The notes beneath the pieces are model-generated. The model did not search any database, was not told the DNA's origin, and was given only the letters and a program-made list of their open reading frames with translations. 64,000 nt of DNA, from the NCBI GenBank assembly GCA_041615815.1, contig JBFJCP010000001.1, forward strand, positions 96,001 through 160,000, read 5' to 3'. Below, one piece after another: positions 7,330 through 38,911 of the stretch; positions within the stretch are counted from its first letter, which is position 1; each line of letters opens with the position of its first letter. The translations under genes were made by a program, and so were the position numbers. This DNA comes from Gemmatimonadales bacterium. GTDB lineage: Bacteria; Gemmatimonadota; Gemmatimonadetes; Gemmatimonadales; GWC2-71-9.

Positions 7330-8601
7330 GTGGATCGCCCAGTTTCGTTACATACCGCGCGCCTCATCCTTCAGCGATGGTGGGGACACGACGACTTTCA
7401 CTATCACCAGCGGCGTGCCATCCTCGCGGCGCTCCGCGGCCGGGACTGTCTGGCCGTCTTGCCCACCGGCGGCGGCAAGTCACTTTGCTATCAGATTCCA
7501 GGACTTGTGCGCCCTGGCCTCACCGTGATCGTCTCTCCCCTCGTGTCGCTGATGCAGGACCAGGTAGCGGCGCTTCGCGCGCGCCACCTCCCGGCAGCGT
7601 ACGTGGCTGGCGACCAGCCCCGGGTATCCCAGGAGGCTGTGTGGAGCGGCGTCCGAAGCGGGCGCGTGAAGCTGCTGTATGTAGCGCCCGAGCGCTTGCG
7701 TCAGACGGCCGAACGCGTGGGCCGTCGTCCGGTCGGACTCTTGGCCGTGGACGAAGCACACTGCATCTCGGAGTGGGGACACGAGTTTCGACCCACGTAT
7801 CGCGGCTTGGGCCAATACGTCCAGGTCTTGGGCACGCCACCGGTCATGGCGGTGACCGCGACGGCCACGCCGGCCACGCGATGGGAGATCGTACGCAGCC
7901 TCCGCCTCAAGCGACCGGTCATGGCGCTACGCTCGTTCGATCGGCCCAACCTGTGGTTGGGGGTGCGGTGTTTTGCCAACGCCGCGAGCAGGCTCGGAAC
8001 CACCGCGCGAATGCTACGCCGCGTGGCCGACGGAGTGGCGTTGGTGTATGCCCCTACCCGGCATCGGACGGATGATGTCGCGGCCGTGCTTCGCTGGTGG
8101 GGGATCCGAGCGTGGCCCTATCACGCCGGACTGCCCGCGCATGCCCGGCGCCGACTGCTCTACCGCTTTCGGTGCGGCGAGCTCCGGGTGGTGGTCGCCA
8201 CCAGCGCTTTCGGGATGGGGATCGACCGCCCCGACGTGCGCCTCGTGATCCATCTTGGCCTCCCGGTGCGTCCGGAGGCCTACTATCAGCAGGCCGGCCG
8301 CGCGGGCCGTGACGGTGAGCCAGCGGCATGTTGGCTATTCTGGGAAAAGGGGGACCTGCGGCTTGCGTCCCGCTTGGCTGCCCGGGGCGGCGCGGACGGA
8401 CCCGGAACCGTTGCGGCACGCGAGTCTCGCGCCCGAGCGCTCGCCACGATGGAACGGTACGTCAGGGGTCGACAATGCCGTCGACGAGCGCTCCTTGCCT
8501 ATCTCGGGGAGTCGCTCTCACGGTGTGCCGGGTGTGACCGTTGCGCCCGACGCGGGATTCGTGATCCGCTGCGGTACGGCAGTCCCACCTCGAACCGTTG
8601 A
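7330..8601 (+). CDS. recQ: RecQ-family ATP-dependent DNA helicase (short, no HRDC seen)
   Basis: PTGGGKS, VDEAHCISEWGHEFRP, TATAT, AFGMGID, QQAGRAGRDG, C-terminal Zn motif CRR..CAGCDRC. Confidence 0.9.
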   Translation: MDRPVSLHTARLILQRWWGHDDFHYHQRRAILAALRGRDCLAVLPTGGGKSLCYQIPGLVRPGLTVIVSPLVSLMQDQVAALRARHLPAAYVAGDQPRVSQEAVWSGVRSGRVKLLYVAPERLRQTAERVGRRPVGLLAVDEAHCISEWGHEFRPTYRGLGQYVQVLGTPPVMAVTATATPATRWEIVRSLRLKRPVMALRSFDRPNLWLGVRCFANAASRLGTTARMLRRVADGVALVYAPTRHRTDDVAAVLRWWGIRAWPYHAGLPAHARRRLLYRFRCGELRVVVATSAFGMGIDRPDVRLVIHLGLPVRPEAYYQQAGRAGRDGEPAACWLFWEKGDLRLASRLAARGGADGPGTVAARESRARALATMERYVRGRQCRRRALLAYLGESLSRCAGCDRCARRGIRDPLRYGSPTSNR

Positions 8602-8607
8602 CGCGAC

Positions 8608-9933
8608 ATGCTCGACCGCTTCTTCCAATTGCACGCGCATCAAACCACGGTTCGCCGCGAGATCGGCGCCGGGGCCACCACCTTCGTCACGATGTCGTAC
8701 ATCATTTTCGTGCAACCGGTGGTCCTGGGGGCCGCGGGCATGGATCCGGGCGCGGTGATGACGGCGACCTGTCTGTCCAGTGCTCTGGCCACGCTCCTGA
8801 TGGGGCTCCTCGCCAATTATCCCATTGCTCTAGCGCCAGGAATGGGGCACAACTTCTTCTTCACCTACACGGTCGTGATCCTGTTGGGATACACCTGGCA
8901 GCAAGCGCTCGGTGCCATCTTCGTTTCCGGGGTATTGTTCATCGTTCTGGCCTTCATCGGGTTTCGCGAGCGGTTATTGAATGCCGTCCCGGCGGCGTTG
9001 CGCAACGGCATTGCAGCAGGCATTGGCCTCTTGATTGCGCTGGTGGGACTCCAGTGGGGCGGTATCGTCGTCGATAGCCCCGGAACACTCGTGCAGCTGG
9101 GCTCCTTGGGGTCACTCCCGGTGTTGCTCACCGTGCTGGGACTCGCGGTTACGTCGATCCTGCTCGCCTGGCGGGTGCGGGCCGCTATTCTCCTCGGGAT
9201 CGTGACCACCCTGGTGGTCGGGCTGGCGCTGGGAGTGACGGAGTTTCACGGAGTCGTGGGACGTCCTCCAGCGCTGCGCGCCACATTCCTCCAGCTGGAC
9301 GTGCTTGGGGCGCTCCAGACCGGGATGCTCTCCGTCATCTTCGTGTTCTTCTTCCTCGATCTGTTCGACACGGTCGGGACCCTCATTGGCGTCACGCAGG
9401 AGGCGGGGTTGGTGCGGGAGGACGGCACGCTTCCTCGGGCCCGCGGCGCACTCTTGGCCGACGCCATCGGCACCGTGAGCGGAACGCTCCTGGGCACGTC
9501 GACGATCACGAGCTACGTGGAGAGTGCCGCCGGTGTGACCGCCGGAGGCCGTACCGGCCTAGCCAGCGTCGTTACGGCACTCCTCTTCGTGAGTGCGCTG
9601 TTTTGTGCACCGTTGGTGGCGATGATCGGTCGGGGCGTACCGATGGGCGAGGGGCGTGTGCTCTATCCGATGGTCGCACCGGCGTTGATCCTCGTGGGGA
9701 GCTACATGATGAAAAGCGTTGTGCGGATCGAGTGGTCGGATCCGAGCGAAGCGATCCCGGCATTCCTCACGATTCTCGTCATGCCCCTGACCTTCAGCAT
9801 TACCGAGGGCATCGCGTTCGGATTCATTGCCTATGTCGTGCTCAAAGGGGCACGTGGTCGGCTTCGTGAGGTACCCCTGCTCATACAAGTGTTCGCCGGG
9901 TTGTTCGTCCTCCGTTACCTGTTGCTCTCGTGA
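8608..9933 (+). CDS. NCS2/AzgA-family purine permease
   Basis: TTFVTMSYII, APGMG, DLFDTVGT, YVESAAG, GGRTGL, many hydrophobic helices. Confidence 0.92.
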   Translation: MLDRFFQLHAHQTTVRREIGAGATTFVTMSYIIFVQPVVLGAAGMDPGAVMTATCLSSALATLLMGLLANYPIALAPGMGHNFFFTYTVVILLGYTWQQALGAIFVSGVLFIVLAFIGFRERLLNAVPAALRNGIAAGIGLLIALVGLQWGGIVVDSPGTLVQLGSLGSLPVLLTVLGLAVTSILLAWRVRAAILLGIVTTLVVGLALGVTEFHGVVGRPPALRATFLQLDVLGALQTGMLSVIFVFFFLDLFDTVGTLIGVTQEAGLVREDGTLPRARGALLADAIGTVSGTLLGTSTITSYVESAAGVTAGGRTGLASVVTALLFVSALFCAPLVAMIGRGVPMGEGRVLYPMVAPALILVGSYMMKSVVRIEWSDPSEAIPAFLTILVMPLTFSITEGIAFGFIAYVVLKGARGRLREVPLLIQVFAGLFVLRYLLLS

Positions 9934-9991
9934 AGGTGCAGGGGGTGTCGATCGGCTTGCCAGCTTACCGCATGCCAAGCATCATTGTGGC

Positions 9992-10783
9992 GTGAGTTCC
10001 CCCGCGAAACGCGAGGTCGCGACCTCGGCTCGAAGCAGACGGAGGGGCATTACCGAGCGGCTGAGGAGACACGCACCGCCGCGCCGTGGGCCTCTCTTCC
10101 GGCTTTTTTGGCCGATCACGGCCTATCTGCTCACCAACATCACGGTCACGTTCTTCTGGGTCGTATTCCGGGTGTTCAATCGGACCGTGGTCACGGGCTT
10201 GGAACACATCGACGACGAGCCCAACACGATGTTACTGTCGAATCATCAGTCCATGATCGACAGCTTCTTGGTGGGCCTCGTCGCCTATTTCCCACGGGCC
10301 ATGTGGAAACCGCATCTCTTGCCGTGGAATCCGGCCGCCGAAGAGAATTTTTACAGGACGCCCGTGTTACGATGGTTTGCAGACAACTGGAAGTGCATTC
10401 CCATCAAGGAGGGCCGGCGAGACCTGCACGCTCTCCACCGAATGCTGCAGGTATTGCCTGCGGGGGTCATGACCCTCTTCCCCGAGGGCACACGCACGCG
10501 AGATGGCTCGGTGGGCCGCGGCCGACCGGGGGCAGGGCTCGTGATCCTCGGAAGCCGCCCCAAAGTCATTCCCGTCGCCATTGACGGGATGCAGGACGTC
10601 TTACCGATTGGGGCGGTGCTGCCCCGGTTGTTCAAACGGATCTACGTGGCGTACGGCGAGCCGCTCGATTACGCCGACCTTCTCAACAAGCCCCGCTCAC
10701 GCGAAACTGCCCAGGAGGTCGTGGACCGCGCGATGGACGCGGTTCGCCGCAAGCTCGAGGAAATCAGGCGTGATCGGCGGTAG
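9992..10783 (+). CDS. lysophospholipid acyltransferase (PlsC family)
   Basis: NHQSMID (HX4D) and FPEGTR motifs; start uncertain (GTG 9992 chosen). Confidence 0.88.
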   Translation: MSSPAKREVATSARSRRRGITERLRRHAPPRRGPLFRLFWPITAYLLTNITVTFFWVVFRVFNRTVVTGLEHIDDEPNTMLLSNHQSMIDSFLVGLVAYFPRAMWKPHLLPWNPAAEENFYRTPVLRWFADNWKCIPIKEGRRDLHALHRMLQVLPAGVMTLFPEGTRTRDGSVGRGRPGAGLVILGSRPKVIPVAIDGMQDVLPIGAVLPRLFKRIYVAYGEPLDYADLLNKPRSRETAQEVVDRAMDAVRRKLEEIRRDRR

Positions 10784-12356
10784 CTGCCGCCGCAACTTGC
10801 GTAGCCGGTTGCGGCTTGATGCCGTCTCCATTCACCTTCTTGAGATAGGCGGTCGGATCGTGCAGCAGCGATCCTTCGGGCAGGTACTCCCAGAGCGCTC
10901 CAAGGTCGCTCTTCATGCGCTCGATGTAGAATGACGGGATCTGCGTCGTCTCTCCTTCGAAAAAGCGGCGCGTCGGGCCGTCGGTTGCGAGGAGCTGTTT
11001 GATCTTCTTGTAGTACTTGATGCGTCCGAATCCCTCGGAAGACACTGCCCGAAGAAGGTTGATCCAGCGCGAAAATCCCCGCCTCGTCCCGCGCGCTCGC
11101 CGCACGATGTTCTTCCAGGAAAACGAGTATTGGGTCAGATCGATGACGTGATCGTAAAACTCCCCCCACTCGTAGTTCCTGGGCTCGACATTCATCGCCT
11201 GATTGTTGTTCAAGAAGTGGAACGGGAACGGGCGGACTCGCCCGGCGCGTTGAAACTCGAGGTTGAGGGGTGCGGCCTCTCCAAACGCGGACAAGAGTGA
11301 ATAGCCCGGGAATGCGCCGGGTGTCTTGTCGATGAATTGCTTGGTGAGCTCGAACGGCTCCGGTCCCTCATCCACGTCGAGACCCAGGACGAAATTGGTT
11401 TGGACGTAAGGGATGTATTCCAATATCATGTTTACGTGGTCGGAGACCTGTTGCACCTTCTCGAGACCACGCTTCTTTCCCGTCTTGGACTTGCCACCCA
11501 AATCGTACCATGACTCGATCCCCGGGAGCATCACCTTGAAGCCCGCGGCGCTCAGGCGCTGCAAGTTCGCTTCCTTGAGGAGGGAGAGACTGCTCTCCGC
11601 GGCGAACGTCAGCGTCCCGGGACGGATGGCATCTTCGATCGCGCTCATGTAGTCGTCGAAGCGAACGCCGAAGTTCGGATCGTGCCAGCCGATCCAGGCG
11701 TTCGGCATACGGTCGACGAGGAAACGCAGGTCCTCACGAATCTGGTCGTAGTCCAACGGCTGATAATCGACCACCGAATCGATGCAGAAGCTGCACGTGT
11801 AGGGACACCCGAGACTGCCGATCATCGGGATGCCTTTGATCGGTGTCGGTGATTTGGCGATGGTGTGTTCGATGAAGCGCCAACGCTCTCGCACACCTGG
11901 CAATGTCTGGGGTTGCCGCGGCGCACTGAGGTGCAGCCCCATGGGGCGATGGGGTGCGCAATCGCGCAAGATCTCGTCGATGATCGCCTTATCGGTGAAC
12001 CCGACGACGTAATCGAAGTACTTCCGGGCATCCTCGGGGTAGCACCGCGCGTGCGGCCCGCCGAGAACCGTGACCGCCCCCCGCTGCCGAAACAGATTGC
12101 TCAGGGCATACGACAGCTGAGCCGCCTGGCTGAAGGCGCCGATGAAGAGCAGATCCATGTCCGCGGGAAACGCTTCGAGGAGATCCTCCGACCCGGTGAA
12201 GCACTCGAAAGTGACGTGATGGCCCGCCTCCTCGCACCAGACGCCCACGGCTTGTGGCATGATGCTGGCCAAATTCGGGTGCATCAGGCGGCCGTACAGC
12301 GCTTTGGTGGGTCCCTTCGTGACGAGGTCGAGGATACCGATCCGTAGTCGTCGCAC
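10764..12356 (-). CDS. B12-binding radical SAM protein
   Basis: N-terminal cobalamin-binding-like region (VLGGPHA) and GCPYTCSFC CxxxCxxC motif; GIES, FVLGLD. Confidence 0.88.
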   Translation of the reverse strand: MRRLRIGILDLVTKGPTKALYGRLMHPNLASIMPQAVGVWCEEAGHHVTFECFTGSEDLLEAFPADMDLLFIGAFSQAAQLSYALSNLFRQRGAVTVLGGPHARCYPEDARKYFDYVVGFTDKAIIDEILRDCAPHRPMGLHLSAPRQPQTLPGVRERWRFIEHTIAKSPTPIKGIPMIGSLGCPYTCSFCIDSVVDYQPLDYDQIREDLRFLVDRMPNAWIGWHDPNFGVRFDDYMSAIEDAIRPGTLTFAAESSLSLLKEANLQRLSAAGFKVMLPGIESWYDLGGKSKTGKKRGLEKVQQVSDHVNMILEYIPYVQTNFVLGLDVDEGPEPFELTKQFIDKTPGAFPGYSLLSAFGEAAPLNLEFQRAGRVRPFPFHFLNNNQAMNVEPRNYEWGEFYDHVIDLTQYSFSWKNIVRRARGTRRGFSRWINLLRAVSSEGFGRIKYYKKIKQLLATDGPTRRFFEGETTQIPSFYIERMKSDLGALWEYLPEGSLLHDPTAYLKKVNGDGIKPQPATQVAAAATADHA

Positions 12357-12457
12357 TGAAACCCCTATGAGGTCAAAGGATGGGCGAAAGGTTCACCACC
12401 GCAGCGGCGAAAGCAACCCCGGCTTGACGATGCTCCCACGGGACCGCACGATCACGC

Positions 12458-13162
12458 ATGGCCGAGCGGCTCGTACGCTACCGATGGAACGTCGCCGTGG
12501 TCGAGGTGGCGGCACCCGGAGCACCGTTCCGTGCCCTGGAACGTATCATCCGCCAAGGCATCGGCCCGGCCACGAGCGATCCGGTCTTTCAGGAGCATGC
12601 GGTGGCTTTCGCCGTCTCGAAGACCGCCGAGCCAACGGCCGAAGACCGGGTCCGGGGCTGGGTTGATCTGACCGCTGTCGCGCCGTCCGACTCGCCGATC
12701 CGCGGGGCGGTGCAGCGCCATCTGGGCGATCTCGGCGCCATCGAGGAGCCGCCATCGGATGCTGACCCGCTCCTGCTGCCCCAGGCCGCGGAGTATCGCC
12801 GCGGCCTCACTGACATGGTGGCCATCGCCTTGGACCTGCATGGCGCGGATCCGACCACGCTGCGGGCGCATCAAGGTGAGCTGCTCCAAGTGGCGTGCAG
12901 CGCTACCGATCCCCGGTTCCAGCTCCACCCGTATCTCTCGGAGCACAGCAAGGTCTACCGTGCCCGCACTGGCGTGCCGCCGGACGGGAGTAGCTGGTCC
13001 TGGGAGCACGAGGAGTGTTGGGCCCGATTCTACACTCCCGGACCGATGGCGACGCTCGCGGCCCCCATCTACGCCCTGCTGAACGTGGTGCTCGGCATCG
13101 TCCCGCGGCGCTGGGACCGCCCGGACGCGCTGGCGGCACGCATCGATATCCCCCTGCCGTGA
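12458..13162 (+). CDS. hypothetical protein
   Basis: 234-aa ORF with protein-like composition filling the gap between two radical SAM genes; no family recognised. Confidence 0.6.
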   Translation: MAERLVRYRWNVAVVEVAAPGAPFRALERIIRQGIGPATSDPVFQEHAVAFAVSKTAEPTAEDRVRGWVDLTAVAPSDSPIRGAVQRHLGDLGAIEEPPSDADPLLLPQAAEYRRGLTDMVAIALDLHGADPTTLRAHQGELLQVACSATDPRFQLHPYLSEHSKVYRARTGVPPDGSSWSWEHEECWARFYTPGPMATLAAPIYALLNVVLGIVPRRWDRPDALAARIDIPLP

Positions 13163-13226
13163 GGCCCGAGCGCCGACCGGACGGGCCGTGGACCCCGAAG
13201 GTCAGAGGCTCAAAGGGCGAGCGCGC

Positions 13227-14702
13227 TCAGGCCACCTTGGATACGAGGCGACGTTGGTCGGACCGCCCGTTCCCACCCTCCCGCCGGGGCGCTCGCACGC
13301 GGACCGGTGGCTTGAGGTACGCCTTCGGCTGCCGCATTTCAGAGACGGCGCTGTACACCCGTCGCATACACCAGAGCTTGCCACCCACCGCCATGCGCGC
13401 GGCCTTGAAGAGCATGGGGACCGTCAGCCGCGTCGTCTTGACCGTGAGATCGTACAGCTGCGCCAAGCGCTCGTAGAACTGCTCGAGCGGCAGCCGCGTT
13501 GGCAGGACGGCATGAATCACGTCGTAGTACCCATAGTCATGCGTCGTGAGCTCGTGCTGCCGCTCCTTGTAGAGCTCGGTTCCCGGGAGCGGGGTGAGAA
13601 CGGTAAACGCGGGATTGGGCAGCTCGTAGCGTCGGATGTATTCCTCGAGCCGATCGAACCCCTGCTCGTCCCAATCCGGATCTGTGATAAACGAGGTCAG
13701 GGGCGTGATCCCAGCGTCCTTGAGGATCTGGATCGCTTCGACATTGGCGTCCGCACCACCCTTGGTCCGTTTCCGCACGGACTTGAGGCCATCGTCGTCG
13801 ATTTTCTCGACGCCGAGAAAGACCGTATGGAGCCCCGCTCGCTTCCAGAGAGGGAACAGATCACGATACTTGATGACCAGGTCGCAGCGAGTCTCACACG
13901 TGTATTTCTTCTCCATCCCCGACGCGATGATGCGCTCGGCCATCTCTTTGTAGGACTCGTAGTGCAGGAATGCGATGTCGTCGGTGAAGAACACCTCGTA
14001 TTCGTCGATGGCTTCGAGCTCGGCCACGATCGCTTCCGGTGAACGGCGGCGCGCGCGACGCTGGTAAAAGACCCAGACGCTGCAGAAGTTGCAGTCGAAC
14101 GGGCACCCCCGGGACGTTTCGACGCTGGCCGACGGTGAGGCCTGACCGTGATGGTACCACTTGCGATATTGCGCGGTCAGGGACCGATCGGGAGCGGGGA
14201 CGGTGTCGAACCCCTGCAGGGCGCTCTGATGCCGAAAGCCGTCCTCGCGGTTCTTCCAGGTCATGACACCGGGCACCGCGTCGATGGGGGTCCGATGCCG
14301 CATGGCTTCGATCAGATCGGCGGCAGGACGCTCGCCCTCCCCAATCACTACGCCATCCACGGGGGAGTTCGGGTGAAAGAAGTCGCTTGGCACCAGGGAG
14401 GCGTGGTGCCCGCCAACGATGATGGGAAGGTCGGGCCGGCGTTCCTTGACAAAATGCGCGACCTCGAGACTCGGGTAGACGTCGGTGGTGAACGAGCAGC
14501 TTATGCCCACGACGTCGGGCGGATCGTCGAGGGTGGAATCGAGATTTTCCCAAGTGTCGATACGGAGATCGATCAGTTCAGCCTCGACTCCCCGTTGCCG
14601 AACGGCCGCCCCCACACATTCCAAGCCAAGTGGCTCCACGCGGAGTATGCGGGTGAGTCCGAAGCGTGTTCCCTGGGGCGGCTGGACGAGAAGCATTTTC
14701 AT
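13227..14702 (-). CDS. B12-binding radical SAM protein, HpnR-like (lipid C-methyltransferase family)
   Basis: LRVEPLGLE, VGGHHAS, GEGE, SRGCPFDCNFC, FTDD, ETRCD, DPDWD, TPLPGT, HAVLPTRLPLEQFY resemble hopanoid C-3 methylase HpnR; ATG 14702 chosen. Confidence 0.85.
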   Translation of the reverse strand: MKMLLVQPPQGTRFGLTRILRVEPLGLECVGAAVRQRGVEAELIDLRIDTWENLDSTLDDPPDVVGISCSFTTDVYPSLEVAHFVKERRPDLPIIVGGHHASLVPSDFFHPNSPVDGVVIGEGERPAADLIEAMRHRTPIDAVPGVMTWKNREDGFRHQSALQGFDTVPAPDRSLTAQYRKWYHHGQASPSASVETSRGCPFDCNFCSVWVFYQRRARRRSPEAIVAELEAIDEYEVFFTDDIAFLHYESYKEMAERIIASGMEKKYTCETRCDLVIKYRDLFPLWKRAGLHTVFLGVEKIDDDGLKSVRKRTKGGADANVEAIQILKDAGITPLTSFITDPDWDEQGFDRLEEYIRRYELPNPAFTVLTPLPGTELYKERQHELTTHDYGYYDVIHAVLPTRLPLEQFYERLAQLYDLTVKTTRLTVPMLFKAARMAVGGKLWCMRRVYSAVSEMRQPKAYLKPPVRVRAPRREGGNGRSDQRRLVSKVA

Positions 14703-14932
14703 GGCGGGGCACTCCAGGGCAAAGAGTGTCACAGGCCGGGTGCCGGCGATGGGTCCAAAGGGGTGATGACACCATCGCCAGTCGCTCAGGCGCTGCGTCA
14801 ATGACAGAGGCCGGTCGGACGTGAGAATGTCACGCACCGACCGGCCCGGTCTCTAGGTTACGTTCTCACCGATCGAGAGAACGTAGGACTATTGCTCCAC
14901 TTCCCGAGTTCGGCGGACGGCGGCGTGCCAGC

Positions 14933-16792
14933 TCAATGACATCCACACGCGCCGTCGCCGTTGCCGGCCCCAACGCCGGCAGCCACGACTGGAAGCGACC
15001 GGCTCGTCTTGCCGGGAAGGTCCATGGGGCGGTTCCCCGCGTAGATCTTGTGTCGGCTGCGGGTCTTGAACCAGTCCTTCGTAGTGGCCACCATGTGCAT
15101 GTTCTCCACCACCTGGCGCCAGCCCACGCCAGTGTTGTAGGCGCAGAAGGAGATCTCACCCTCCTGGGTGGCGTAGGGGATCACACACATCTCGGTGCGG
15201 CGAAAATCGTACGTCCACAGATCCTGGAACCACATGCCGCCGATCCACATGAGCTTCCACTCGGGTGGCGGCGGCTTCTTCCCACCGGTAAAGGCGCCAC
15301 CCATCTTGCGATTGAAGAGTCTCGCGAACTCTTTGAGGTCGAATCCTGGAGGTGCCTTGGACTGATCGAAGTTCCGTAGTACCGCCATGCCCACCTGCGC
15401 AACCGTGAGCTTCTTGCCCCGCGCCGTATCGCAGATGACCGACACATCCTTCATGAACTGCCAGACGTTGAAGAACTGCGTGAGGGGGGCCCACTCCTTG
15501 GTCCGCTCGTTCACGGTGAGCAACACCGAAGAACCGCAGTTGGGGTGACACGAGCAATTGAGACCCCCGAAGTCGACGTCCGAGCCCCGGATGTGGTCCG
15601 CCAGTGCCGTGAAGGCACCCATGGCCCCGAGCGGATACCAGTCGCGGTACGGATCGATCTTCCCGTCGTAGTAACGGTGCAGCTCGTGCGCCAGATGCGA
15701 AATGGTGTAGCGCTGCGCGTGACGGTCTTCGTCGCTGATATCCTCGTCGCGGCCCGTGAACGACACGGGCTGGAAGGACACGCCACCCATCTTGTCCGAG
15801 TTCTCGATGACGAAATCGAGAATCGGTCCCACCTGGGTGTCGTTGATCGTATTGACGACGGTGGTGACCGGCGTGATATCGATGCCAGCGGCGGCCATGT
15901 GCTCGACGGCCATCCGCTTGGCATCGAACAGGTTCGTGATTTGCCGGTGTTGGTTGGACTCGTTGGTGACGCCATCGAACTGGAAGTACGCCATATCGAG
16001 GCCGGCTTCCTTGGCCTGGAAAGCGTATTCCGGCTCCAGCGCGAATCGCAGCCCGTTAGTGGCCGCCTGGACGGTGTAGTAACCCACTTTTTTTGCGTAG
16101 GCACAGGCTTCCAGGAAGTGCGGTGACATGGTGGGTTCGCCGCCGGAAAACTGCACGGACATCTGTCGGCGCGGCTTGAACGAAATAGACGTATCCAGGA
16201 TTTCCTTGATGTCCTCCATCGAGAGCTCGTGGACGTAGCCCACCTGATTGGCGTCCATGAAGCACGGGTTGCACATCATGTTGCATCGGTTGGTGAGGTC
16301 GATCGTGAGCACGGCACCCCGACCGTACCGAATCGATGATGTCCCGTGTCGGTGGATCAGCGCATCCTCCGCGGTCCGAAAGTCGCGGCCGGGATAGCGC
16401 TCCTCGATGAGCTCGCTGAACTTGGCGTCGATGCTGAGTACGTCGACAAACTCCCCGTGCACGGGGCAGGTCTTCCGCATCAGAATCTGACCGTCTTCCT
16501 CGACGATGGTCGCCCGGATCTCGCCCGGGTGCCCATGGACCAACTCGGCGAGATCCCGATCGCCCCTGATAATGGCTTCTCGCGTCTCCTTGACGCATCG
16601 GGGGCAGAGCGAATCGGTCTCCCGCGGCCATCCGAGCGGCGGACGGCTGCGCTCGTAACTCTTGAGCAACGGCCCGGGAGCCCACTGTGGATGGATCGAC
16701 TCGTTCTCGGGAACTCGGGTGTTGACGGACTGGAACGCCCGCCACCCGAGATCGGCTGCGTGGCGGATCGCGGCCGCCAGTACTTCGCTCAT
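14933..16792 (-). CDS. radical SAM protein homologous to tetraether lipid synthase Tes/GDGT-MAS (MJ0619 family)
   Basis: SLCPRC...KTCPVHG rubredoxin-like site, IDLTNRCNMMCNPCF, QFSGGEPT, ATNG, QFDG, FQPVSFTGR, CHPNCG, MWFQD...CVIPYAT..FCAYN; GGAGG RBS before ATG 16792. Confidence 0.88.
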   Translation of the reverse strand: MSEVLAAAIRHAADLGWRAFQSVNTRVPENESIHPQWAPGPLLKSYERSRPPLGWPRETDSLCPRCVKETREAIIRGDRDLAELVHGHPGEIRATIVEEDGQILMRKTCPVHGEFVDVLSIDAKFSELIEERYPGRDFRTAEDALIHRHGTSSIRYGRGAVLTIDLTNRCNMMCNPCFMDANQVGYVHELSMEDIKEILDTSISFKPRRQMSVQFSGGEPTMSPHFLEACAYAKKVGYYTVQAATNGLRFALEPEYAFQAKEAGLDMAYFQFDGVTNESNQHRQITNLFDAKRMAVEHMAAAGIDITPVTTVVNTINDTQVGPILDFVIENSDKMGGVSFQPVSFTGRDEDISDEDRHAQRYTISHLAHELHRYYDGKIDPYRDWYPLGAMGAFTALADHIRGSDVDFGGLNCSCHPNCGSSVLLTVNERTKEWAPLTQFFNVWQFMKDVSVICDTARGKKLTVAQVGMAVLRNFDQSKAPPGFDLKEFARLFNRKMGGAFTGGKKPPPPEWKLMWIGGMWFQDLWTYDFRRTEMCVIPYATQEGEISFCAYNTGVGWRQVVENMHMVATTKDWFKTRSRHKIYAGNRPMDLPGKTSRSLPVVAAGVGAGNGDGACGCH

Positions 16793-16989
16793 GGCACCTC
16801 CAGATGGGAGCAAAGTGTCTTACGACGCCTGACCCCACCCCTCCGGCGCTTGCTGCGGCTGTACCAGGGCGCCGACCGGAGAAAATCGGCACGCAGGGCG
16901 GGTGGTTTTCATAAGGGGCGCACGGTGAGAATGGTTCCCACGGTACGCCCTGCAAACTTGCCCGAGTATGACGCTTAGCACCCCTCGCG

Positions 16990-18060
16990 TCAAGGCCCGG
17001 GTTGGCTCTGCGGAACGGCCGCGGGAAGGGGTATTCCCGCCTCGAAAAGACGCCGTTCGACCTCGGGCGCTAACCGCGCGCTCGGCTCGACCCACCGTAG
17101 CCCTTCGCCGAGCAGCGCACGCATCCGTTGCTGTGTTGTGCGGCCCGTTACGTCGTCGAATTTCGACGCGAGCCCTTGGAGCCATGGCGCCGACGCCACG
17201 AGCTTCGTGGCGCCCACTTCCGATGGTTGGGTGTGCGGCCGGCCCGAGGGGAGCGTGAGCACGCTTTGGCCGTCGCCGACATAGGTATACCAGGCCATCC
17301 GCACCGTGGGTGTCACACCCACCGCTTCGAACAACACGACGTCCTCCGCCTGCGGAGCACACTGCAACACCCGGTCTCGAACGAAATCGATTGCGTCGCC
17401 ATGGCTGAATTCCACGCGGTCCAACGTCCCGTCCGCACGAGCGGCGTAATGGATCCCTGCCACGTCGTCGGGCTCGGCCTTCCGGGCCTCACCGCGCCAA
17501 TTCTGCGCCCGCTCCGGGGTATCGAGGACCTGCGATCGATCCCACAGAAACCCGTGGCCCACGATACCGTTGGTTCCCTCGTCGCTTCGGTCGGGTAGGA
17601 TGATGGTGTCCGGAATGCCCGCCGCCTGCCGAAGGGCGAGTAGTCGCGTCGCACTGACCGCATCGGTGGCCACGGCAACCCGGGCACCGCTGTCGCGCAC
17701 GGCCTCGCCCAACTGGTCGTCGGAGAGATCGTGCGACAGCCCCACCGGAACGCCCCGGAGTCCCTGTACGGCAAAATCGACGTAGAGCCACATCGGCCGT
17801 AACGGTCCGAATACAGCCACGCGGTCCTCCGCACCGACCTGGAGATTCCCACTGAGAAAGAGGGCAACCCGAATCACCTGGCGATCGAATCGCCAATCGG
17901 GATCGCTGACCCATTGCTCGTCCGCCCAATGCCGAACGACGGCGGGACGTGCGTGCTCGCGCATGGCGAGATAGAACAGGGCATTGACCGTTTCCGGAAT
18001 GGTGTGGAGCGGTCGAACCTCACGGTCCCGCGCCTCACCGGTCGTGATATACAGCAGCAT
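16990..18060 (-). CDS. AMP-binding (long-chain acyl-CoA ligase-like) N-terminal domain protein, degenerate and truncated
   Basis: GAEDRVAVF, DFAVQGLRGVPVGL, DSGARVAV, PDDVAGIHY...FSH resemble FadD N-terminal domain; P-loop TSGTTGxPKG replaced by AARADGTLDR; only 356 aa. Confidence 0.7.
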   Translation of the reverse strand: MLLYITTGEARDREVRPLHTIPETVNALFYLAMREHARPAVVRHWADEQWVSDPDWRFDRQVIRVALFLSGNLQVGAEDRVAVFGPLRPMWLYVDFAVQGLRGVPVGLSHDLSDDQLGEAVRDSGARVAVATDAVSATRLLALRQAAGIPDTIILPDRSDEGTNGIVGHGFLWDRSQVLDTPERAQNWRGEARKAEPDDVAGIHYAARADGTLDRVEFSHGDAIDFVRDRVLQCAPQAEDVVLFEAVGVTPTVRMAWYTYVGDGQSVLTLPSGRPHTQPSEVGATKLVASAPWLQGLASKFDDVTGRTTQQRMRALLGEGLRWVEPSARLAPEVERRLFEAGIPLPAAVPQSQPGP

Positions 18061-18066
18061 CTGGAC

Positions 18067-18603
18067 TCAACCTCTCGGAATGGAATGCGGCTTCAAGGCC
18101 TGCCACAATGATTCGATCGTCGGATCTGTGATCTGCCACCGCTCCATGGCATGAATGAGCGTCCGAACATACTCGACGCCGGTCCCCACGGTGCCGTGGG
18201 CCGCGCGGAAGGCGTCCCCCAGGGCGCCGTTCTCGACACTCCAGGGCGGAGCCGCCTGGACCGCTGGCTTCGTGACCCAGACGAGCGCCGTGGCACGAGT
18301 TCCGTCACGCAGGTCGATCCGCACCTTCTTACGCGCAAACTCTGCCTGACCTTCCCGTCGCTCGATCTTGCGCACCACGTCTTTCTCATCGCTCTTCGGG
18401 ATCTCGAACGCGACGCCCTCACACTCTCCTCCGCTCGATAACCCCAGAATGGGCGAGGGGTGGGTCGGGGTTCCCCACCGTTTCGTGGACGAGTGGTTGA
18501 ACGACCGGTGATAGCCGGTGAGGCGGGCTGGTGTCCCTCGGTAGAACCTCATGGCGTTGTCGCCCATGAGACTGCCGTAAGCGAAGATCCACGTCACGCC
18601 CAA
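18067..18603 (-). CDS. gamma-glutamylcyclotransferase, ChaC family
   Basis: WIFAYGSLM, GYHRSF, WGTPTHP..LGL, GGECEGVAF, RRE, G.GVEY. Confidence 0.85.
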   Translation of the reverse strand: MGVTWIFAYGSLMGDNAMRFYRGTPARLTGYHRSFNHSSTKRWGTPTHPSPILGLSSGGECEGVAFEIPKSDEKDVVRKIERREGQAEFARKKVRIDLRDGTRATALVWVTKPAVQAAPPWSVENGALGDAFRAAHGTVGTGVEYVRTLIHAMERWQITDPTIESLWQALKPHSIPRG

Positions 18604-18741
18604 ATCCTTCCCGCTCCAGACAGTTGCGAAGCTCGAAACCCGTTGGGGTGCTTGCGGATTGCGTCGAGCGGCTTAGTCTACTACCCGAAGGCCGATTTTC
18701 AAGGGTCCCCTGCGCCTGCACTTACCCACACCACGCAGACC

Positions 18742-19038
18742 ATGATGCATCGTGCCAATGTCCTGGACGTCGTCCGAGCCGTGACGCAGGTGGCGACCAA
18801 CCACCCTCAGGTGTCGGTGTGGTGGTATGTGCCGCGGCTCCTGGACAACCCCAACATCGAGCTCCTGGTGAAGGTTGAGGATGAGCACCCCACCGACCTC
18901 GATGCGATCGCGCGCGAGGTCGACGCCTTGCTCGATGGCGCCAACGTCACCGTGAAGCGTCATGCGGACGGGGACGGGGAACGCCGGCTGTTCCGCGTGC
19001 TCAGTCACAACCAAGCCGCCGTCGACAGCGCCTCCTAG
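18742..19038 (+). CDS. hypothetical protein (98 aa)
   Basis: ATG 18742 in frame with ORF 18460..19038; globular alpha/beta-like composition. Confidence 0.6.
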   Translation: MMHRANVLDVVRAVTQVATNHPQVSVWWYVPRLLDNPNIELLVKVEDEHPTDLDAIAREVDALLDGANVTVKRHADGDGERRLFRVLSHNQAAVDSAS

Positions 19039-19172
19039 CCGCTCCTCTCTCGAGACCGACCCAGCCACCGCCGGCTGCGAGACCGCCCGCGGGTCATGTC
19101 CTCTTTTGAGCACAAGATTTCCGGCAGAATGCGACCTGGCGTAGACAACCTCGGGCCTGGCGTGCAACGACG

Positions 19173-19185
19173 TAATTCCTTGATA
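19173..19185 (-). promoter_or_regulatory. IHF-type binding site
   Basis: Minus strand TATCAAGGAATTA matches WATCAANNNNTTR in an AT-rich intergenic patch. Confidence 0.5.
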
Positions 19186-19523
19186 GATATGAAATTAGGC
19201 CGGAGCGCCTCGCGGGCGGAACTTCTGGCACAGAATTTCCATTTAGGGGATGCAAAGAAAAACTGCGGCGTGCTGAACGTCTTGTCGCCAGGCAAGAAAT
19301 CTCGTCGGGAGGGGACGAGCGGGACCACACCAAAGCCCGGTTCAGCACGCCGCAGCGCTTTTTGTTTCGCTACGGTCTTCACAATATGTCACATGGCGCG
19401 GGGAACCGCAATCACGCCCGTACCGTCCGCAGACCCCGTATCACTCGTTGCTTCCCAGCACATAGCCTGCCCTCTAACTTTCACAAGACACCGCACGAAG
19501 CACGCTTTCTAGGAGGGGACGTA

Positions 19524-20858
19524 GTGAGTCACTCCAGGCTCGTTTTGCTCGCTTCTTTACTGGTCGCCGCCACCGGGACGCTTCCAGCACAGGACGCACC
19601 AGTGCGTCGAATCCCGGTTACGGGCACCATCGAATTGGGGATCGCGCCGTTCGTTGCCCGCGGGCTGTCGGAAGCACAGAAAGAGGGTGCCCGCGCCGTG
19701 GTGCTCGAGATCGAGACCCCGGGCGGTCGTGTGGATGCGGCACAGCACATCGTCAAAGCGATCATCCAGACCGAGATTCCGGTCTATGCCTTCGTGAACG
19801 CCCACGCCTGGAGTGCTGGGGCACTCATCGCGCTCGCCGCGGACTCCATCTACATGGGTCCCGGGTCATCTATCGGGGCGGCAACACCCGTGGGGGGAAC
19901 CGGAGAGAAGCTCTCCGAGAAGATCGTCAGCGCCATGCGCGGGGAGTTCCGCTCGCTCGCCGAGCGTCGGGGGCTGGACCCGCGGATCGCCGAGGCCATG
20001 GTCGATGAGGAGATTGCCGTCGAGGGCGTGGTGGAGGCGGGGAAACTGCTCACGCTCACTGCGGCGGAAGCAGTGGAAACCGGAGTGGCCGCAGCCGAAG
20101 TGGAGAATCTGGACGATCTGCTCCGGCAGGTGGGGCTGGGCGAGGTCGGCGTGGCCACGGTGAGCATCAACTGGGCGGAACAGCTCGTCCGGTTCCTGTC
20201 ACACCCGCTGGTGGCGCCCCTGCTCCTGTCCATTGGCACGCTGGGGCTCATCATCGAGATCAAGACGCCTTCCTTTGGGCTGGCGGGGCTCACCGGCATC
20301 GTGGCCTTGGGTGCCTTTTTCGGAAGCCATTTGATCGTCGGGCTTGCCGGCTGGGAAGAGGTCATATTGCTGGTCGCCGGCTTGATCGCCCTGGCGATCG
20401 AAGTGTTCGTGGTGCCGGGCTTCGGGATCGCGGGGATGATTGCCATCCTCTGCATCGGGTCGGCTACGTTCTTGGCGTTGATCGGCGCACTGCCTACCTG
20501 GGGCGATATCGCGAGAGCGAGTGGCATTCTCGTGACGTCGTTCATGATCGTGGCGGCCGCGGTGTATGCCATCGTGCGCCATTTGCCGACGAGCGAGCGG
20601 TGGAGGGGTATCTTCTTGCGGGCGGCGACCACGAAAGAAACCGGGTACCTCTCCGCGCCGGCTCGTGCCGAGTTGGTGGGCCTGGAGGGATTGGCGGTCA
20701 CGGACCTCCGCCCGTCCGGCACCATGCGGATTGGCAACGAGCGGCACGACGTCGTCTCCGATACGGGGTTCATCCCCAAAGGCGCGCGGGTACGGATCAT
20801 CCGCTCGGAAACCTACCGGCTGGTCGTCGAGGAAGTGGCCGACACCGCCAGCGTTTAA
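19524..20858 (+). CDS. nfeD: NfeD family membrane protein (ClpP-class protease domain, TM region, OB-fold)
   Basis: IETPGGRV, AWSAGALIAL, SSIGAA, TDLRPSG; AGGAGG RBS before GTG 19524. Confidence 0.9.
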   Translation: MSHSRLVLLASLLVAATGTLPAQDAPVRRIPVTGTIELGIAPFVARGLSEAQKEGARAVVLEIETPGGRVDAAQHIVKAIIQTEIPVYAFVNAHAWSAGALIALAADSIYMGPGSSIGAATPVGGTGEKLSEKIVSAMRGEFRSLAERRGLDPRIAEAMVDEEIAVEGVVEAGKLLTLTAAEAVETGVAAAEVENLDDLLRQVGLGEVGVATVSINWAEQLVRFLSHPLVAPLLLSIGTLGLIIEIKTPSFGLAGLTGIVALGAFFGSHLIVGLAGWEEVILLVAGLIALAIEVFVVPGFGIAGMIAILCIGSATFLALIGALPTWGDIARASGILVTSFMIVAAAVYAIVRHLPTSERWRGIFLRAATTKETGYLSAPARAELVGLEGLAVTDLRPSGTMRIGNERHDVVSDTGFIPKGARVRIIRSETYRLVVEEVADTASV

Positions 20859-20873
20859 TGGACGAGGACGACT

Positions 20874-21866
20874 ATGAGTGAACTGTTTGCGATAGCACCG
20901 TGGCTGCTACCGGTGGCGCTGGTGGTCATCGTGCTGTTCTTGGGGTGGTTCATCAGCTTCATCCCGATCCGGTTGTGGATCGAGGCACTGGCCGCCGGCG
21001 TCCGCGTCACCTTCCGAACGTTGGTCGGCATGCGGCTGAGAAAGGTCAATCCGGCCGCCGTCGTGCGCCCCATGATCAACGCGACCAAAGCAGGGCTCTC
21101 TCTCGGCATCGACATGCTGGAAGCGCACTACTTGGCTGGGGGAAACGTGGATCGCGTCGTGAAAGCGCTGATCTCTGCGGATAAAGCGGGGATCGATCTC
21201 CCCTTCAAGCAGGCGACGGCCATTGACCTGGCGGGACGGGACGTCCTCGAGGCCGTACAGGTCTCGGTCAATCCGAAGGTGATCCAAACGCCCAAAGTGG
21301 CCGCGATGGCGAAGGACGGCATCCAGCTCATCGCGCTGGCCCGCGTCACCGTCCGGGCGAACATCAACCGCCTGGTCGGTGGGGCGGGGGAAGAGACCAT
21401 TCTCGCGCGGGTCGGCGAAGGCATCGTGTCGACGATTGGATCGTCGGCCTCGCACAAAGCGGTGCTCGAAAACCCGGACAACATCTCCAAAACCGTCCTC
21501 GCCAAGGGACTCGACAGCGGGACGGCCTTCGAGATCCTCTCTATCGATATCGCCGATGTCGACGTGGGCAAGAACATTGGGGCCGAGCTGCAGACCGACC
21601 AGGCCGAAGCCGACAAGCGGATCGCGCAGGCGAAGGCGGAGGAACGGCGGGCTATGGCCGTGGCGTCAGAGCAGGAGATGAAGGCCAAGACCCAGGAGAT
21701 GCGGGCCAAGTTGGTGGAGTCCGAAGCCCAGGTCCCGCTGGCGATCGCTGACGCGTTCAAGGGCGGCCAGCTCGGCATCATGGATTACGCACGGTGGCGG
21801 AACATCGAGGGAGATACGGCCATGCGGCGCAGCATCGCCGGTGAGAAGGGCGAGGAAAACAGCTAA
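20874..21866 (+). CDS. floA: flotillin-like protein FloA (YqfA, UPF0365)
   Basis: [56 protein letters not shown]. Confidence 0.95.
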
Positions 21867-28950: not shown

Positions 28951-30380
28951 GGAGTCACGGGATTCTTGAGCCAAACGATCAAGGTAATTATAGCCACCGC
29001 GAGCACGTTGAGACCGATCCCCGCTCGCGCCATGTCCCGAGTGGAAACTGCACCGGATCCAAAGACGATGGCGTTGGGAGGTGTCGCGACCGGTAGCATG
29101 AACGCCATGGACGCCGCGAGCGCGCCGGTGATCATGAGCGGAAGCGCGGGAACTCCGAGACCCGCGGCGACCCCCACCATGAGGGGCATTCCCAGGGCTG
29201 CGGTCGCGGTGTTGCTCGTGAGCTCCGTGAGCAGGACGAAGAGCGTCGCCGTGGCCAACAGCACCACCGGTAACGGCGCCCCTGCCAAACCCTGGAGCAG
29301 CCCGCCAACCCACTCCGTGAGCCCGGTGCGCTCGAACGCACTGGCCAGGGAAAGGCCGCCGCCAAAGAGCAAGAGAATCCCCCACGGAACTTTGCGGGCG
29401 GACTCCCAATCCAGTGCCACGGCGAATCGCGACCGCGGCAGTGGAGTCACGAACAAGATGACGGCGGCCGCCAGGGCAATTCCCGCGTCGGAAATGCCCG
29501 GAATGAGATCGGTGAGTCCGGGAATCCGGATGGCGCCAAGGCTCTTCGGTGCGCGTACTATCCAGGCAGTCGCCGTCAGCGCAAAGACCGTGAGGACGAA
29601 TCGCTCACCACCGGAGAAACCCCCGAGATCCCGCCCTTCCCGATCGACGGCCTCTGCGAGACCCGGCAACGCGCCGCGTACACGAAACATGAGGACGAGC
29701 AAGAGCCAACAGGCAAACAGCATGGGAATCGTGATCAGGAGTCCCGTCCCGATCCAGCTTCCAAAGGAAATCTCGACACCCAACAGCTCGCGGGCGGCGC
29801 CCGCCAGAATCGCGTTGGGCGGGGTACCGATGAGGGTGGCCACGCCTCCGATGGAGCACGCGTAGGCAATTCCCAACATCAATGCGGTAGGAAACCCGGT
29901 AGCCGCTCTTCCACCGGTTCCGCGCGTGCCCACCACCGCCGCCGCAATGGGAAGCATCATGAGCGCCGTCGCGGTATTCGAGATCCACATGCTGGCTGCC
30001 GCAGAGGCGAGCATGAAGGCCAACACGACCCGCGGGGCATCCGTGCCCACGGCCCGGACGGTGGCGAGCGCGAAACGCCGGTGCAGCTCCCACCGCTCGA
30101 GCGTTGCCGCCAGAAAGAACCCACCGAGGAATAGGAAGATGATGGGGTCCGCGTAGGGAGCGGCCACTTCCCCCACCGACCCGGCACGAACCAACGGGAG
30201 CAGCACGATGGGAAGGAGCGCCGTGGCTTCCAGGGGAACCACCGCGGAGAGCCACCACACCGCCATCCACGCGGCGAGGCCCGCCACGCGCCACCCAGTA
30301 GCCGCGAGGAGCGGCGGGGGTGGGGTGACCAGGCCAACGAGAAAGAGCAGGGGCCCCAGCAGGAGCGCAACGCGTCGCAT
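28947..30380 (-). CDS. DASS/SLC13 sodium:di-/tricarboxylate symporter
   Basis: two SNT motifs (ISNTAT, TSNTAT), IGTPPNA, PVATPPNAIV. Confidence 0.93.
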   Translation of the reverse strand: MRRVALLLGPLLFLVGLVTPPPPLLAATGWRVAGLAAWMAVWWLSAVVPLEATALLPIVLLPLVRAGSVGEVAAPYADPIIFLFLGGFFLAATLERWELHRRFALATVRAVGTDAPRVVLAFMLASAAASMWISNTATALMMLPIAAAVVGTRGTGGRAATGFPTALMLGIAYACSIGGVATLIGTPPNAILAGAARELLGVEISFGSWIGTGLLITIPMLFACWLLLVLMFRVRGALPGLAEAVDREGRDLGGFSGGERFVLTVFALTATAWIVRAPKSLGAIRIPGLTDLIPGISDAGIALAAAVILFVTPLPRSRFAVALDWESARKVPWGILLLFGGGLSLASAFERTGLTEWVGGLLQGLAGAPLPVVLLATATLFVLLTELTSNTATAALGMPLMVGVAAGLGVPALPLMITGALAASMAFMLPVATPPNAIVFGSGAVSTRDMARAGIGLNVLAVAIITLIVWLKNPVTP

Positions 30381-31246
30381 TATCGAGAGGGGAAAATCGC
30401 GAGGGGCGTGGAACGAGTAACCTGCGTCTTCAGGTCCTCCTCCAAGGGGAGACCGAGAAACTGGTCGAGGTTCTCACGCAGGTCGCGCACCCCGGGACTT
30501 GGCCAATCTGTTCCCCAGACCACGCGATCGCCGATCTCCGCCAGCCGTGGGAAGTACTCCAGCAGTTTCTTGGGCGGAATGCCCGACAGTTCCAAGTACA
30601 CGTTGCGATGCCGACGCATGATGAAGAATGCTTCGTTCATCCACAGTGGGCGCCCGCCGTGCGCCATGAGGATCACCAAATCAGGAAAGTCGATGGCTAC
30701 GTCGTCGATCTCCATCGGACGGCCATACTTCGACCGCGCGCCGGGGAAGATGCTGGTCCCGGTGTGGATCATGACCGGCAGGCCGCGCTCCTCACAACGC
30801 CGGTAAATGCGGCCGAGGGCCTCGAGCCCCAGCGTGTAGGCGTTGGCCGGGAAGACTTGGTGGGGCGGGTGGATCTTGAGACAGCGGATGCCGAGCTGCA
30901 GGAGCTCTTCCACCTGGCCCTCCGGGTCCTGCGTGAACCGCGGATGCACACCACCGTAGGGCAGAAGTCGCTCCGGCGCTGCGGCCGCGTACTCCGCGGC
31001 GAAGGTGTTGGTGGAATCGTCGAACCCCATCAGGTCCGGACTCGGATAGTTGACCAGCCCGACCCGCCAGACCTCGCTGTCGTCCAGCACTTCGAGGAGA
31101 GCCGCAGGGTCGTCCATCAGCGCGAGGAGGCGCTCCCAATGCGCCTCTTTCCCGCGCCGCATCACCGTGGCTACGTGGGGCTTGAGTTGCCGCCACGGCT
31201 GGATGTGAATGTGGAGATCGCTGACCCCAGGGGTACCAGCGGTCAT
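30380..31246 (-). CDS. amidohydrolase family protein (Amidohydro_2)
   Basis: DLHIH, KIHP, IHTG, AHGG, WGTDWP. Confidence 0.88.
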   Translation of the reverse strand: MTAGTPGVSDLHIHIQPWRQLKPHVATVMRRGKEAHWERLLALMDDPAALLEVLDDSEVWRVGLVNYPSPDLMGFDDSTNTFAAEYAAAAPERLLPYGGVHPRFTQDPEGQVEELLQLGIRCLKIHPPHQVFPANAYTLGLEALGRIYRRCEERGLPVMIHTGTSIFPGARSKYGRPMEIDDVAIDFPDLVILMAHGGRPLWMNEAFFIMRRHRNVYLELSGIPPKKLLEYFPRLAEIGDRVVWGTDWPSPGVRDLRENLDQFLGLPLEEDLKTQVTRSTPLAIFPSR

Positions 31247-34653: not shown

Positions 34654-34663
34654 CGTCACCCCC

Positions 34664-38905: not shown

Positions 38906-38911
38906 GGGACG

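Follow-up and report, generated by a model that had tools for sequence, protein, structure and literature searches.

A 64,000-nucleotide stretch of a Gemmatimonadales contig (GenBank JBFJCP010000001.1), which as a whole we call the window, carries at 13227..14702 a minus-strand gene whose product, hereafter the target, we predict to be an HpnR-type lipid methylase of a new variety, one linked to Tes. Specifically, we favour the reading that the target is a cobalamin-dependent radical S-adenosylmethionine (SAM) C-methyltransferase, which would act on the alkyl chains of the lipid product of the adjacent gene, a homologue of Tes (GDGT-MAS). We put the probability of this reading at about 0.45. 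It is carried by two findings: the closest characterised relative of the target is the hopanoid C-3 methylase HpnR, from which scores and trees nevertheless separate it, and in the clade to which the target belongs the gene is recurrently linked to a Tes homologue. On the basis of this conserved linkage, the target most likely acts in the same pathway as the Tes homologue.

The target has the architecture of a class B radical SAM enzyme

The gene and its putative translation signal are as follows.

13227..14702, minus strand: HpnR-like B12-binding radical SAM gene, 491 codons plus stop, 491-aa product
14712..14715, minus strand: GGAG, ribosome-binding-site-like, 9 nt before the ATG at 14702, kept in three related loci (L001-L003)

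The longest open reading frame (ORF) runs back to a GTG at 14837. We dropped this candidate and favour the ATG at 14702 because of the starts of homologues (the equivalent of MRxLLVQPP is the N-terminus in 18/18 aligned target homologues), the GGAG and the local conservation, the region around this ATG being conserved in the three closest related loci while the remaining intergenic sequence has diverged.

The target consists of an N-terminal Rossmann-type cobalamin domain followed by a radical SAM barrel, which is the class B radical SAM architecture. Residues 21-130 match the Pfam B12-binding domain PF02310 (70.7 bits, E 1.2e-19) and residues 194-340 the Radical_SAM core PF04055 (68.1 bits, E 1.4e-18), with a CxxxCxxC motif (C200/C204/C207) that is invariant in 18/18 aligned clade members. 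An AlphaFold model built from 18 sequences (mean predicted local distance difference test score, pLDDT, 81.6; predicted template modelling score, pTM, 0.85) agrees with this assignment, its 15 best fold matches in the PDB (E 1.8e-17 to 4.8e-13) all being B12-type radical SAM enzymes, among them AprD4, TsrM, MgmA, OxsB, CysS and TokK. A sequence-only PDB search returned the same set of enzymes at E 8.6e-12 and weaker.

The original prediction had assigned four motifs of this gene to the HpnR family. All four are present: LRVEPLGLE (residues 20-28), RGCPFDCNFC (198-207), DPDWD (341-345) and HAVLPTRLPLEQFY (397-410). Neither in the target clade (22 aligned rows) nor in true HpnR (10 rows) do their core residues vary, so HpnR-family motifs is a fair label for them.

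The target is related to HpnR and lies outside it

The best NCBIfam match of the target is HpnR (TIGR04367, an equivalog model), with 355.5 bits and an E value of 3.8e-106 against a curated cutoff of 650 bits, the match covering profile positions 1-422 of 490; the second-best match is BchE, with 158.7 bits. An exhaustive search with the target through 1.84 billion representative sequences gave 39,540 matches at E<=0.001 and 656 at E<=1e-30. We scanned 100 of the 150 listed representatives against NCBIfam, omitting 8 short fragments, 2 long fusions and the 40 lowest-scoring, and a single one (P0141, 788.7 bits) passed the HpnR cutoff, the remaining 99 scoring at most 349 bits or having no family at E<=1e-60. 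P0141, which is 41% identical to the target, was then the seed of a search that retrieved the true HpnR family, proteins of about 514 aa with records including Methylotetracoccus oryzae, Methylobacterium nigriterrae and Nitrospira. HpnR-model scores form two well-separated groups: 779-925 bits for true HpnR rows (10/10) on the one hand, and 332-355 bits for ten further members of the target clade and 352-375 bits for three proteins of a sister clade on the other.

The same division appears in the phylogeny, in which HpnR was the sole labelled reference family. A quick tree of 124 rows and a careful one of 69 rows and 508 columns (IQ-TREE, LG+C20 with posterior mean site frequencies, PMSF) agree. 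The groups are listed below with their support, given as ultrafast bootstrap / Shimodaira-Hasegawa-like approximate likelihood ratio test (SH-aLRT).

True HpnR: 10/10 rows monophyletic, 100/100, stem length 1.79
Target clade: 24/24 rows monophyletic, 100/100
Sister clade (metagenome-assembled genomes, MAGs, from Dadabacteria, HR37, Spirochaetia and Ignavibacteriales): 10/10 rows monophyletic, 100/99
Target clade and sister clade: joined, 93/85
Target clade, sister clade and HpnR: joined, 100/97

The best tree that groups the window protein with HpnR was rejected by an approximately unbiased (AU) test (delta lnL 47.5, p-AU 0.0027), the tested group having been named after the tree was seen. At the level of residues, the target clade (22 rows) and HpnR (10 rows) have 75 invariant positions in common and another 34 that each fixes in its own way. 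The divergence is marked in the C-terminal 70 residues of the target, with a consensus identity to HpnR of 13-23% past residue 420. In this enzyme class, the C-terminal region usually shapes the substrate site.

On these scores and trees, the target is no true HpnR, yet of its characterised relatives HpnR is the closest, and no group in the tree is nearer to HpnR than the target clade and one sister clade combined. This upholds the view in the original prediction of a protein that is HpnR-like yet apart from HpnR: the prediction had held a place inside the bona fide HpnR clade to be the first sign against it, and the target falls outside that clade in a tree that includes the HpnR reference, so this sign is absent.

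A rival explanation is that the target is a genuine hopanoid C-3 methylase, sitting by Tes incidentally. Public sources do label clade members "hopanoid C-3 methylase HpnR", and both the best NCBIfam match and the 41% identity to P0141 point the same way. We nevertheless consider this explanation highly improbable, given that neither the target nor any other tested clade member (none above 355 bits) approaches the cutoff that all ten true HpnRs pass, that the two form separate, fully supported clades whose union is rejected by the AU test, and that the C-terminus has diverged. The genomic context that was read also speaks against it. As the original prediction had stated, the window holds no recognisable squalene-hopene cyclase or hopanoid-pathway (hpn) family among its 70 ORFs (Pfam), and none was found among 138 neighbour ORFs scanned from 11 related loci. 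Public sources name the target clade in four ways (HpnR, YgiQ, BchE-type cyclase and generic B12-binding radical SAM protein), and these differing names are therefore automatic; the HpnR labels fall below the family cutoff and look like over-annotation. Grs- or Gmm-named NCBIfam models were absent from the matches of the target and of 6 distant homologues, archaeal ones included.

The target clade is linked to Tes

We scanned one genome per species with two peptide patterns; 317 stretches matched and 249 relatives were found, of which the best 80 were kept, giving 75 loci, in which the relatives were read through 10-kb flanks. We count as clade loci the 39 whose protein reaches 52% identity or more with that of the window. 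Of these, 35 fall in the target clade in the tree; the other four (L010, L026, L033 and L048), too truncated for the tree, were assigned by identity alone.

A Tes homologue (tblastn, >300 bits) is present in 27/39 clade loci, 93-2053 bp from the target gene, and in 0/36 lower-identity loci outside the clade. A phmmer search on complete ORFs recovers 26 of these 27, the one missed being a contig-end fragment in L026. When only loci with 6 kb or more on each side are compared, Tes is found in 12/16 clade loci vs. 0/21 outside. Three clade loci (L028, L036 and L037) end at the ChaC or AMP-binding genes that normally separate the target gene from Tes, and L008-L010, L012 and L027 are too short for linkage to be judged. 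The association with Tes rather than with hopanoid genes, which the original prediction had seen in one locus, is thus a conserved property of the clade.

The linkage takes several forms: tandem Tes-then-target (6 loci), convergent (10), divergent with ChaC and AMP-binding genes in between (8), and target-ChaC-AMP-binding-Tes (3). It spans Gemmatimonadota and Acidobacteriota MAGs (L005, L007). A quick tree of the 26 Tes homologues gives the same small groups as the methylase tree, an agreement that fits co-inheritance and is not proof of co-evolution because the sequences are related. Identity to the window proteins is 71-93% for the Tes homologues vs. 53-84% for the methylase.

One Gemmatimonadales MAG carries two clade members from different subclades, one in tandem with Tes (L003) and one unlinked (L021). 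These paralogues may serve different positions or substrates.

The Tes homologue and its cluster

Around the target, the window contains the following genes.

14933..16813, minus strand: Tes (GDGT-MAS) homologue, directly upstream of the target, 230-nt gap
16990..18060, minus strand: short AMP-binding (adenylate-forming) protein, 356 aa, matching only the N-terminal part of the Pfam model
18067..18603, minus strand: ChaC/GGCT-like protein, in the cluster in 21 loci
12458..13162, plus strand: 234-aa ORF without a known family, lying between the two B12 radical SAM genes and conserved in L001-L003
10764..12356, minus strand: second B12-binding radical SAM gene, 530 aa, unnamed family, found in L001 and in two copies in L002
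9827..10783, plus strand: PlsC-type acyltransferase, convergent with the cluster, conserved in L001-L003

The nearest relatives of every cluster gene are in Gemmatimonadales MAGs, and the G+C content of the window is about 65%.

The claim that the target lies next to a Tes homologue on the same strand holds, both genes being on the minus strand with the 230-nt gap between them. The true start of the Tes homologue is probably the ATG eight codons into the ORF. Its product, like the structurally solved GDGT-MAS (7tol), has a zinc-ribbon N-terminus (Pfam Zn_ribbon_HMPTM) and a Radical_SAM core, and 7tol is its sole match among solved structures (E 4.9e-64), residues 99-581 aligning to 36-511 of 526, which is nearly full length. 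It differs from GDGT-MAS in being bacterial, in scoring below the NCBIfam equivalog cutoff and in being known here from sequence alone. The AMP-binding gene is kept beside Tes in 23 loci. From the homology of its neighbour to Tes and from two further genes of the cluster, those for the PlsC-type acyltransferase and for the adenylate-forming enzyme, we infer a lipid substrate for the target; methylation as its chemistry and the position that it would modify are inferences too.

An alternative is that the cluster of ChaC, AMP-binding, Tes-like and B12 radical SAM genes serves a non-lipid product (a cofactor, for instance, or a metabolite derived from an amino acid), in which case the Tes-like protein would be a paralogue with a different substrate. 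Several features lend themselves to this explanation. The Tes homologue scores 311.3 bits (E 1e-92) against the NCBIfam Tes model NF045702, under the cutoff of 450, and 209 bits against TrsS, a non-lipid radical SAM family; its zinc ribbon falls in a Pfam family named for a pterin methyltransferase; the conserved ChaC-like partner is without an obvious lipid role, ChaC/GGCT-like and adenylating enzymes being typical of amino-acid chemistry; and the literature searched reports no lipid phenotype for these organisms. Yet the Tes homologue aligns over its full length with GDGT-MAS, its only PDB match, a PlsC-type acyltransferase is kept beside the cluster in the window and in L001-L003, and the closest characterised relative of the target works on a lipid. 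We therefore regard a non-lipid product as unlikely.

A further lipid modification, for example ring formation, may fall to the second B12 radical SAM gene. Its copies elsewhere lie at 12319-13851 in L001 and at 8402-9928 and 10124-11653 in L002, and an ESM Atlas search with its protein returned only unnamed clusters of B12 radical SAM proteins, from Gemmatimonadota, Rhodothermota and Myxococcota. Between the two radical SAM genes, we rejected a minus-strand ORF of 185 aa (12452-13009) as a gene, only the plus-strand 234-aa ORF being conserved (L001-L003); an ESM Atlas search with the latter gave no usable match. A plus-strand NfeD-FloA (flotillin-like) pair at 19362-21866 adjoins the cluster and does so again in L001, while the L002 contig ends within NfeD.

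Proposed mechanism and its weighing

If the favoured reading is correct, the substrate would be unactivated sp3 carbons of membrane-spanning lipid chains, or of a diacyl or dialkyl precursor that the Tes homologue would couple. A first SAM would methylate cob(I)alamin. A second SAM would be cleaved at the [4Fe-4S] cluster held by C200/C204/C207, yielding a 5'-deoxyadenosyl radical that would take a hydrogen atom from a chain carbon, and the resulting substrate radical would pick up the methyl group from methylcobalamin. A two-SAM, methylcobalamin mechanism of this kind is canonical for class B enzymes and is described for Gmm and proposed for HpnR in the available text of PMC13459092.

Two characterised methylases are the natural points of comparison. 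HpnR, whose role as hopanoid C-3 methylase was first shown in Methylococcus capsulatus (Welander and Summons 2012, via PMC5462960), has the same order of an N-terminal B12-binding domain and a radical SAM core as the target. The cluster cysteines and the four motifs are among the invariant positions that the two have in common, and the carbon on which HpnR acts is an unactivated sp3 one in a membrane lipid. The target, by contrast, scores about half the HpnR family cutoff (355 vs. 650 bits), HpnR sits on a long stem, and the last 70 residues of the two are unrelated. Instead of hopanoid genes, the target moreover has beside it those for a Tes homologue, an adenylating enzyme and a ChaC-like protein, and its hosts are uncultured Gemmatimonadota and Acidobacteriota. 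Gmm, the archaeal methylase of glycerol monoalkyl glycerol tetraethers (GMGTs; Garcia et al. 2024, PMC11214058, in the portion available), is the closest functional analogy, a B12 radical SAM enzyme that methylates membrane-spanning tetraether chains, compared here by description only. Like the target gene, gmm stands in a cluster with another radical SAM gene for tetraether modification, but this partner is gms, not tes, and the product of gmm acts on isoprenoid GMGT; according to the same portion of that paper, only 15/990 Gmm sequences are bacterial.

A second alternative keeps the pathway and changes the chemistry: the target would modify the Tes product with no gain of carbon, for example by closing cyclopentane rings in the manner of GrsA/B, by cross-linking or by desaturation, and a lipid lighter by 2 Da, not heavier by 14 Da, would be expected. 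The linkage to Tes is explained equally well. GrsA/GrsB (Zeng et al. 2019, via the available text of PMC11214058 and PMC10087280), also compared by description only, bind B12 and belong to the radical SAM proteins; they form rings in tetraether chains once Tes has acted, and their homologues have been proposed for the rings of brGDGTs (branched glycerol dialkyl glycerol tetraethers) in Solibacter usitatus (same sources). The closest fold match of the target, AprD4, is non-methylating, and with its second B12 radical SAM gene the cluster encodes more than one modification. What argues for methylation instead is that the nearest characterised relative by sequence and tree is the methylase HpnR, with 75 invariant positions in common, and that for a cyclase the other B12 radical SAM gene, which is unrelated, is no worse a candidate. 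We thus judge a carbon-neutral modification improbable and retain C-methylation of the Tes-homologue product as the favoured reading. The original prediction, which offered methylation (for example at C5/C6-type positions of brGDGT chains) or cyclisation of the Tes product, is supported in part.

Several other observations join the below-cutoff score of the Tes homologue, its TrsS match and its ChaC-like partner in weighing against this reading. The best structural match of the target model, AprD4, is a dehydratase, and it shares the fold of the target with another non-methylating enzyme, OxsB; methylation is one of several reactions of B12 radical SAM enzymes, next to cyclisation, dehydration and ring contraction. 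Four of the 16 clade loci with full flanks (L006, L013, L021 and L047) are without Tes. All 75 retrieved loci, including all 39 clade loci, come from MAGs. No ether-lipid genes were recognised in family scans of the window ORFs. The literature searched yielded no paper on Gemmatimonadota with membrane-spanning lipids or brGDGTs. The synthesis of brGDGT-type lipids by bacterial Tes homologues is put forward only as a hypothesis in the available text of PMC8941075 and PMC10087280, and Sahonero-Canavesi et al. (PMC13159169, in its accessible part) found Tes homologues in only 3/14 acidobacteria that produce iso-diabolic acid; none of these texts reports an assay of a bacterial Tes homologue. Finally, named cultured brGDGT producers were not among the 75 loci, in a two-pattern scan that may miss divergent orthologues; this argues against the target clade as a universal brGDGT methylase. 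If S. usitatus is truly without the target clade, its C5 methylation needs another enzyme.

The pathway of Halamka et al. (PMC10087280, legend of Fig. 4) is drawn "excluding C5/C6 methylations", and the open full-text literature searched names no brGDGT chain methylase, a candidate in a subscription journal being possible. The available text of a 2026 Bacillota paper makes no mention of radical SAM, methylase, methyltransferase, B12 or HpnR, and the supplements of PMC11214058 mention neither Gemmatimonadota nor HpnR and hold nothing relevant on B12-binding.

Cultured Gemmatimonas strains are reportedly rich in the iso-C15:0 fatty acid, which would be the right precursor; we take this as a lead and not as evidence.

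The sister clade and the wider family

The neighbourhoods of the sister clade offer no functional clue, since most of them are beside housekeeping genes (MnmA, MiaB-like, PurL and PurF). One of the 6 loci examined (L039, HR37) lies among lipid genes, namely CDP-diacylglycerol synthase, PlsC, short-chain dehydrogenase/reductase (SDR) and acyl-ligase genes. In L040, L042, L043, L044 and L045 (Dadabacteria, Spirochaetia and Ignavibacteriales MAGs), two HpnR-like paralogues stand in tandem, each in its own subclade. Elsewhere in the family, P0157 is a natural fusion of 967 aa in which an N-terminal FabD helical-insert domain and an NMO-like region (acyltransferase/enoyl-reductase-like) precede an HpnR-like B12 radical SAM module, which links the wider family to acyl-chain chemistry.

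Intergenic elements and other features of the window

The gap between the Tes homologue and the target contains one prominent element.

14809..14846: perfect 10-bp inverted repeat, GGCCGGTCGG, 18-nt spacer, CCGACCGGCC, between the Tes homologue and the target

As RNA, this repeat would form a strong hairpin (-35.1 kcal/mol, z -3.87) with no U-tract. It is unique in the window, and its stems are kept in L001 and L002 and partly in L003, with different loops. It may serve in attenuation, in processing or stability, or as a site to which a protein binds. A second inverted repeat (14860-14884, 8-bp arms, 9-nt spacer) lies shortly past the Tes stop codon, where L001 has a different palindrome. An Rfam scan of the whole window found only a tRNA, with no cobalamin riboswitch or other known RNA before the target, and a promoter/terminator consensus scan of 9500-19600 gave nothing informative near the target.

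Farther away, a plus-strand ORF of 800 aa (44764-47166) is built like class III/IV lanthipeptide synthetases, with a LanC-like domain behind a protein-kinase domain, and is followed by a 989-aa Ser/Thr kinase (47311-50280). The minus strand at 30380-39511 carries a long run of beta-oxidation or ring-cleavage-type genes with a TetR regulator, comprising enoyl-CoA hydratases, a 3-hydroxyacyl-CoA dehydrogenase, a thiolase, an aldehyde dehydrogenase and a PaaA/PaaC-like protein.

Biological implications

Whatever the reading, a misannotation is corrected, since members of the target clade are publicly labelled HpnR; these labels could inflate gene-based estimates of 3-methylhopanoid producers.

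Beyond this, proxies of temperature and pH in wide use rest on the degree and position of brGDGT methylation, and a Tes-linked family that lies near a known lipid methylase is a concrete, testable candidate for the brGDGT chain methylase. In its most far-reaching form, which is speculative and on balance doubtful, the proposal would be that the target clade is the sought alkyl-chain methylase of bacterial branched membrane-spanning lipids, responsible for the C5/C6-type methylation on which the MBT'5Me palaeothermometer is based; that uncultured Gemmatimonadota and some Acidobacteriota would be unrecognised producers of methylated brGDGT-type lipids; that the Tes-methylase pair would have moved between phyla as a unit; and that the paralogous subclades would correspond to different methylation positions. 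If this were true, Gemmatimonadota, an abundant soil phylum, would be a source organism of these lipids.

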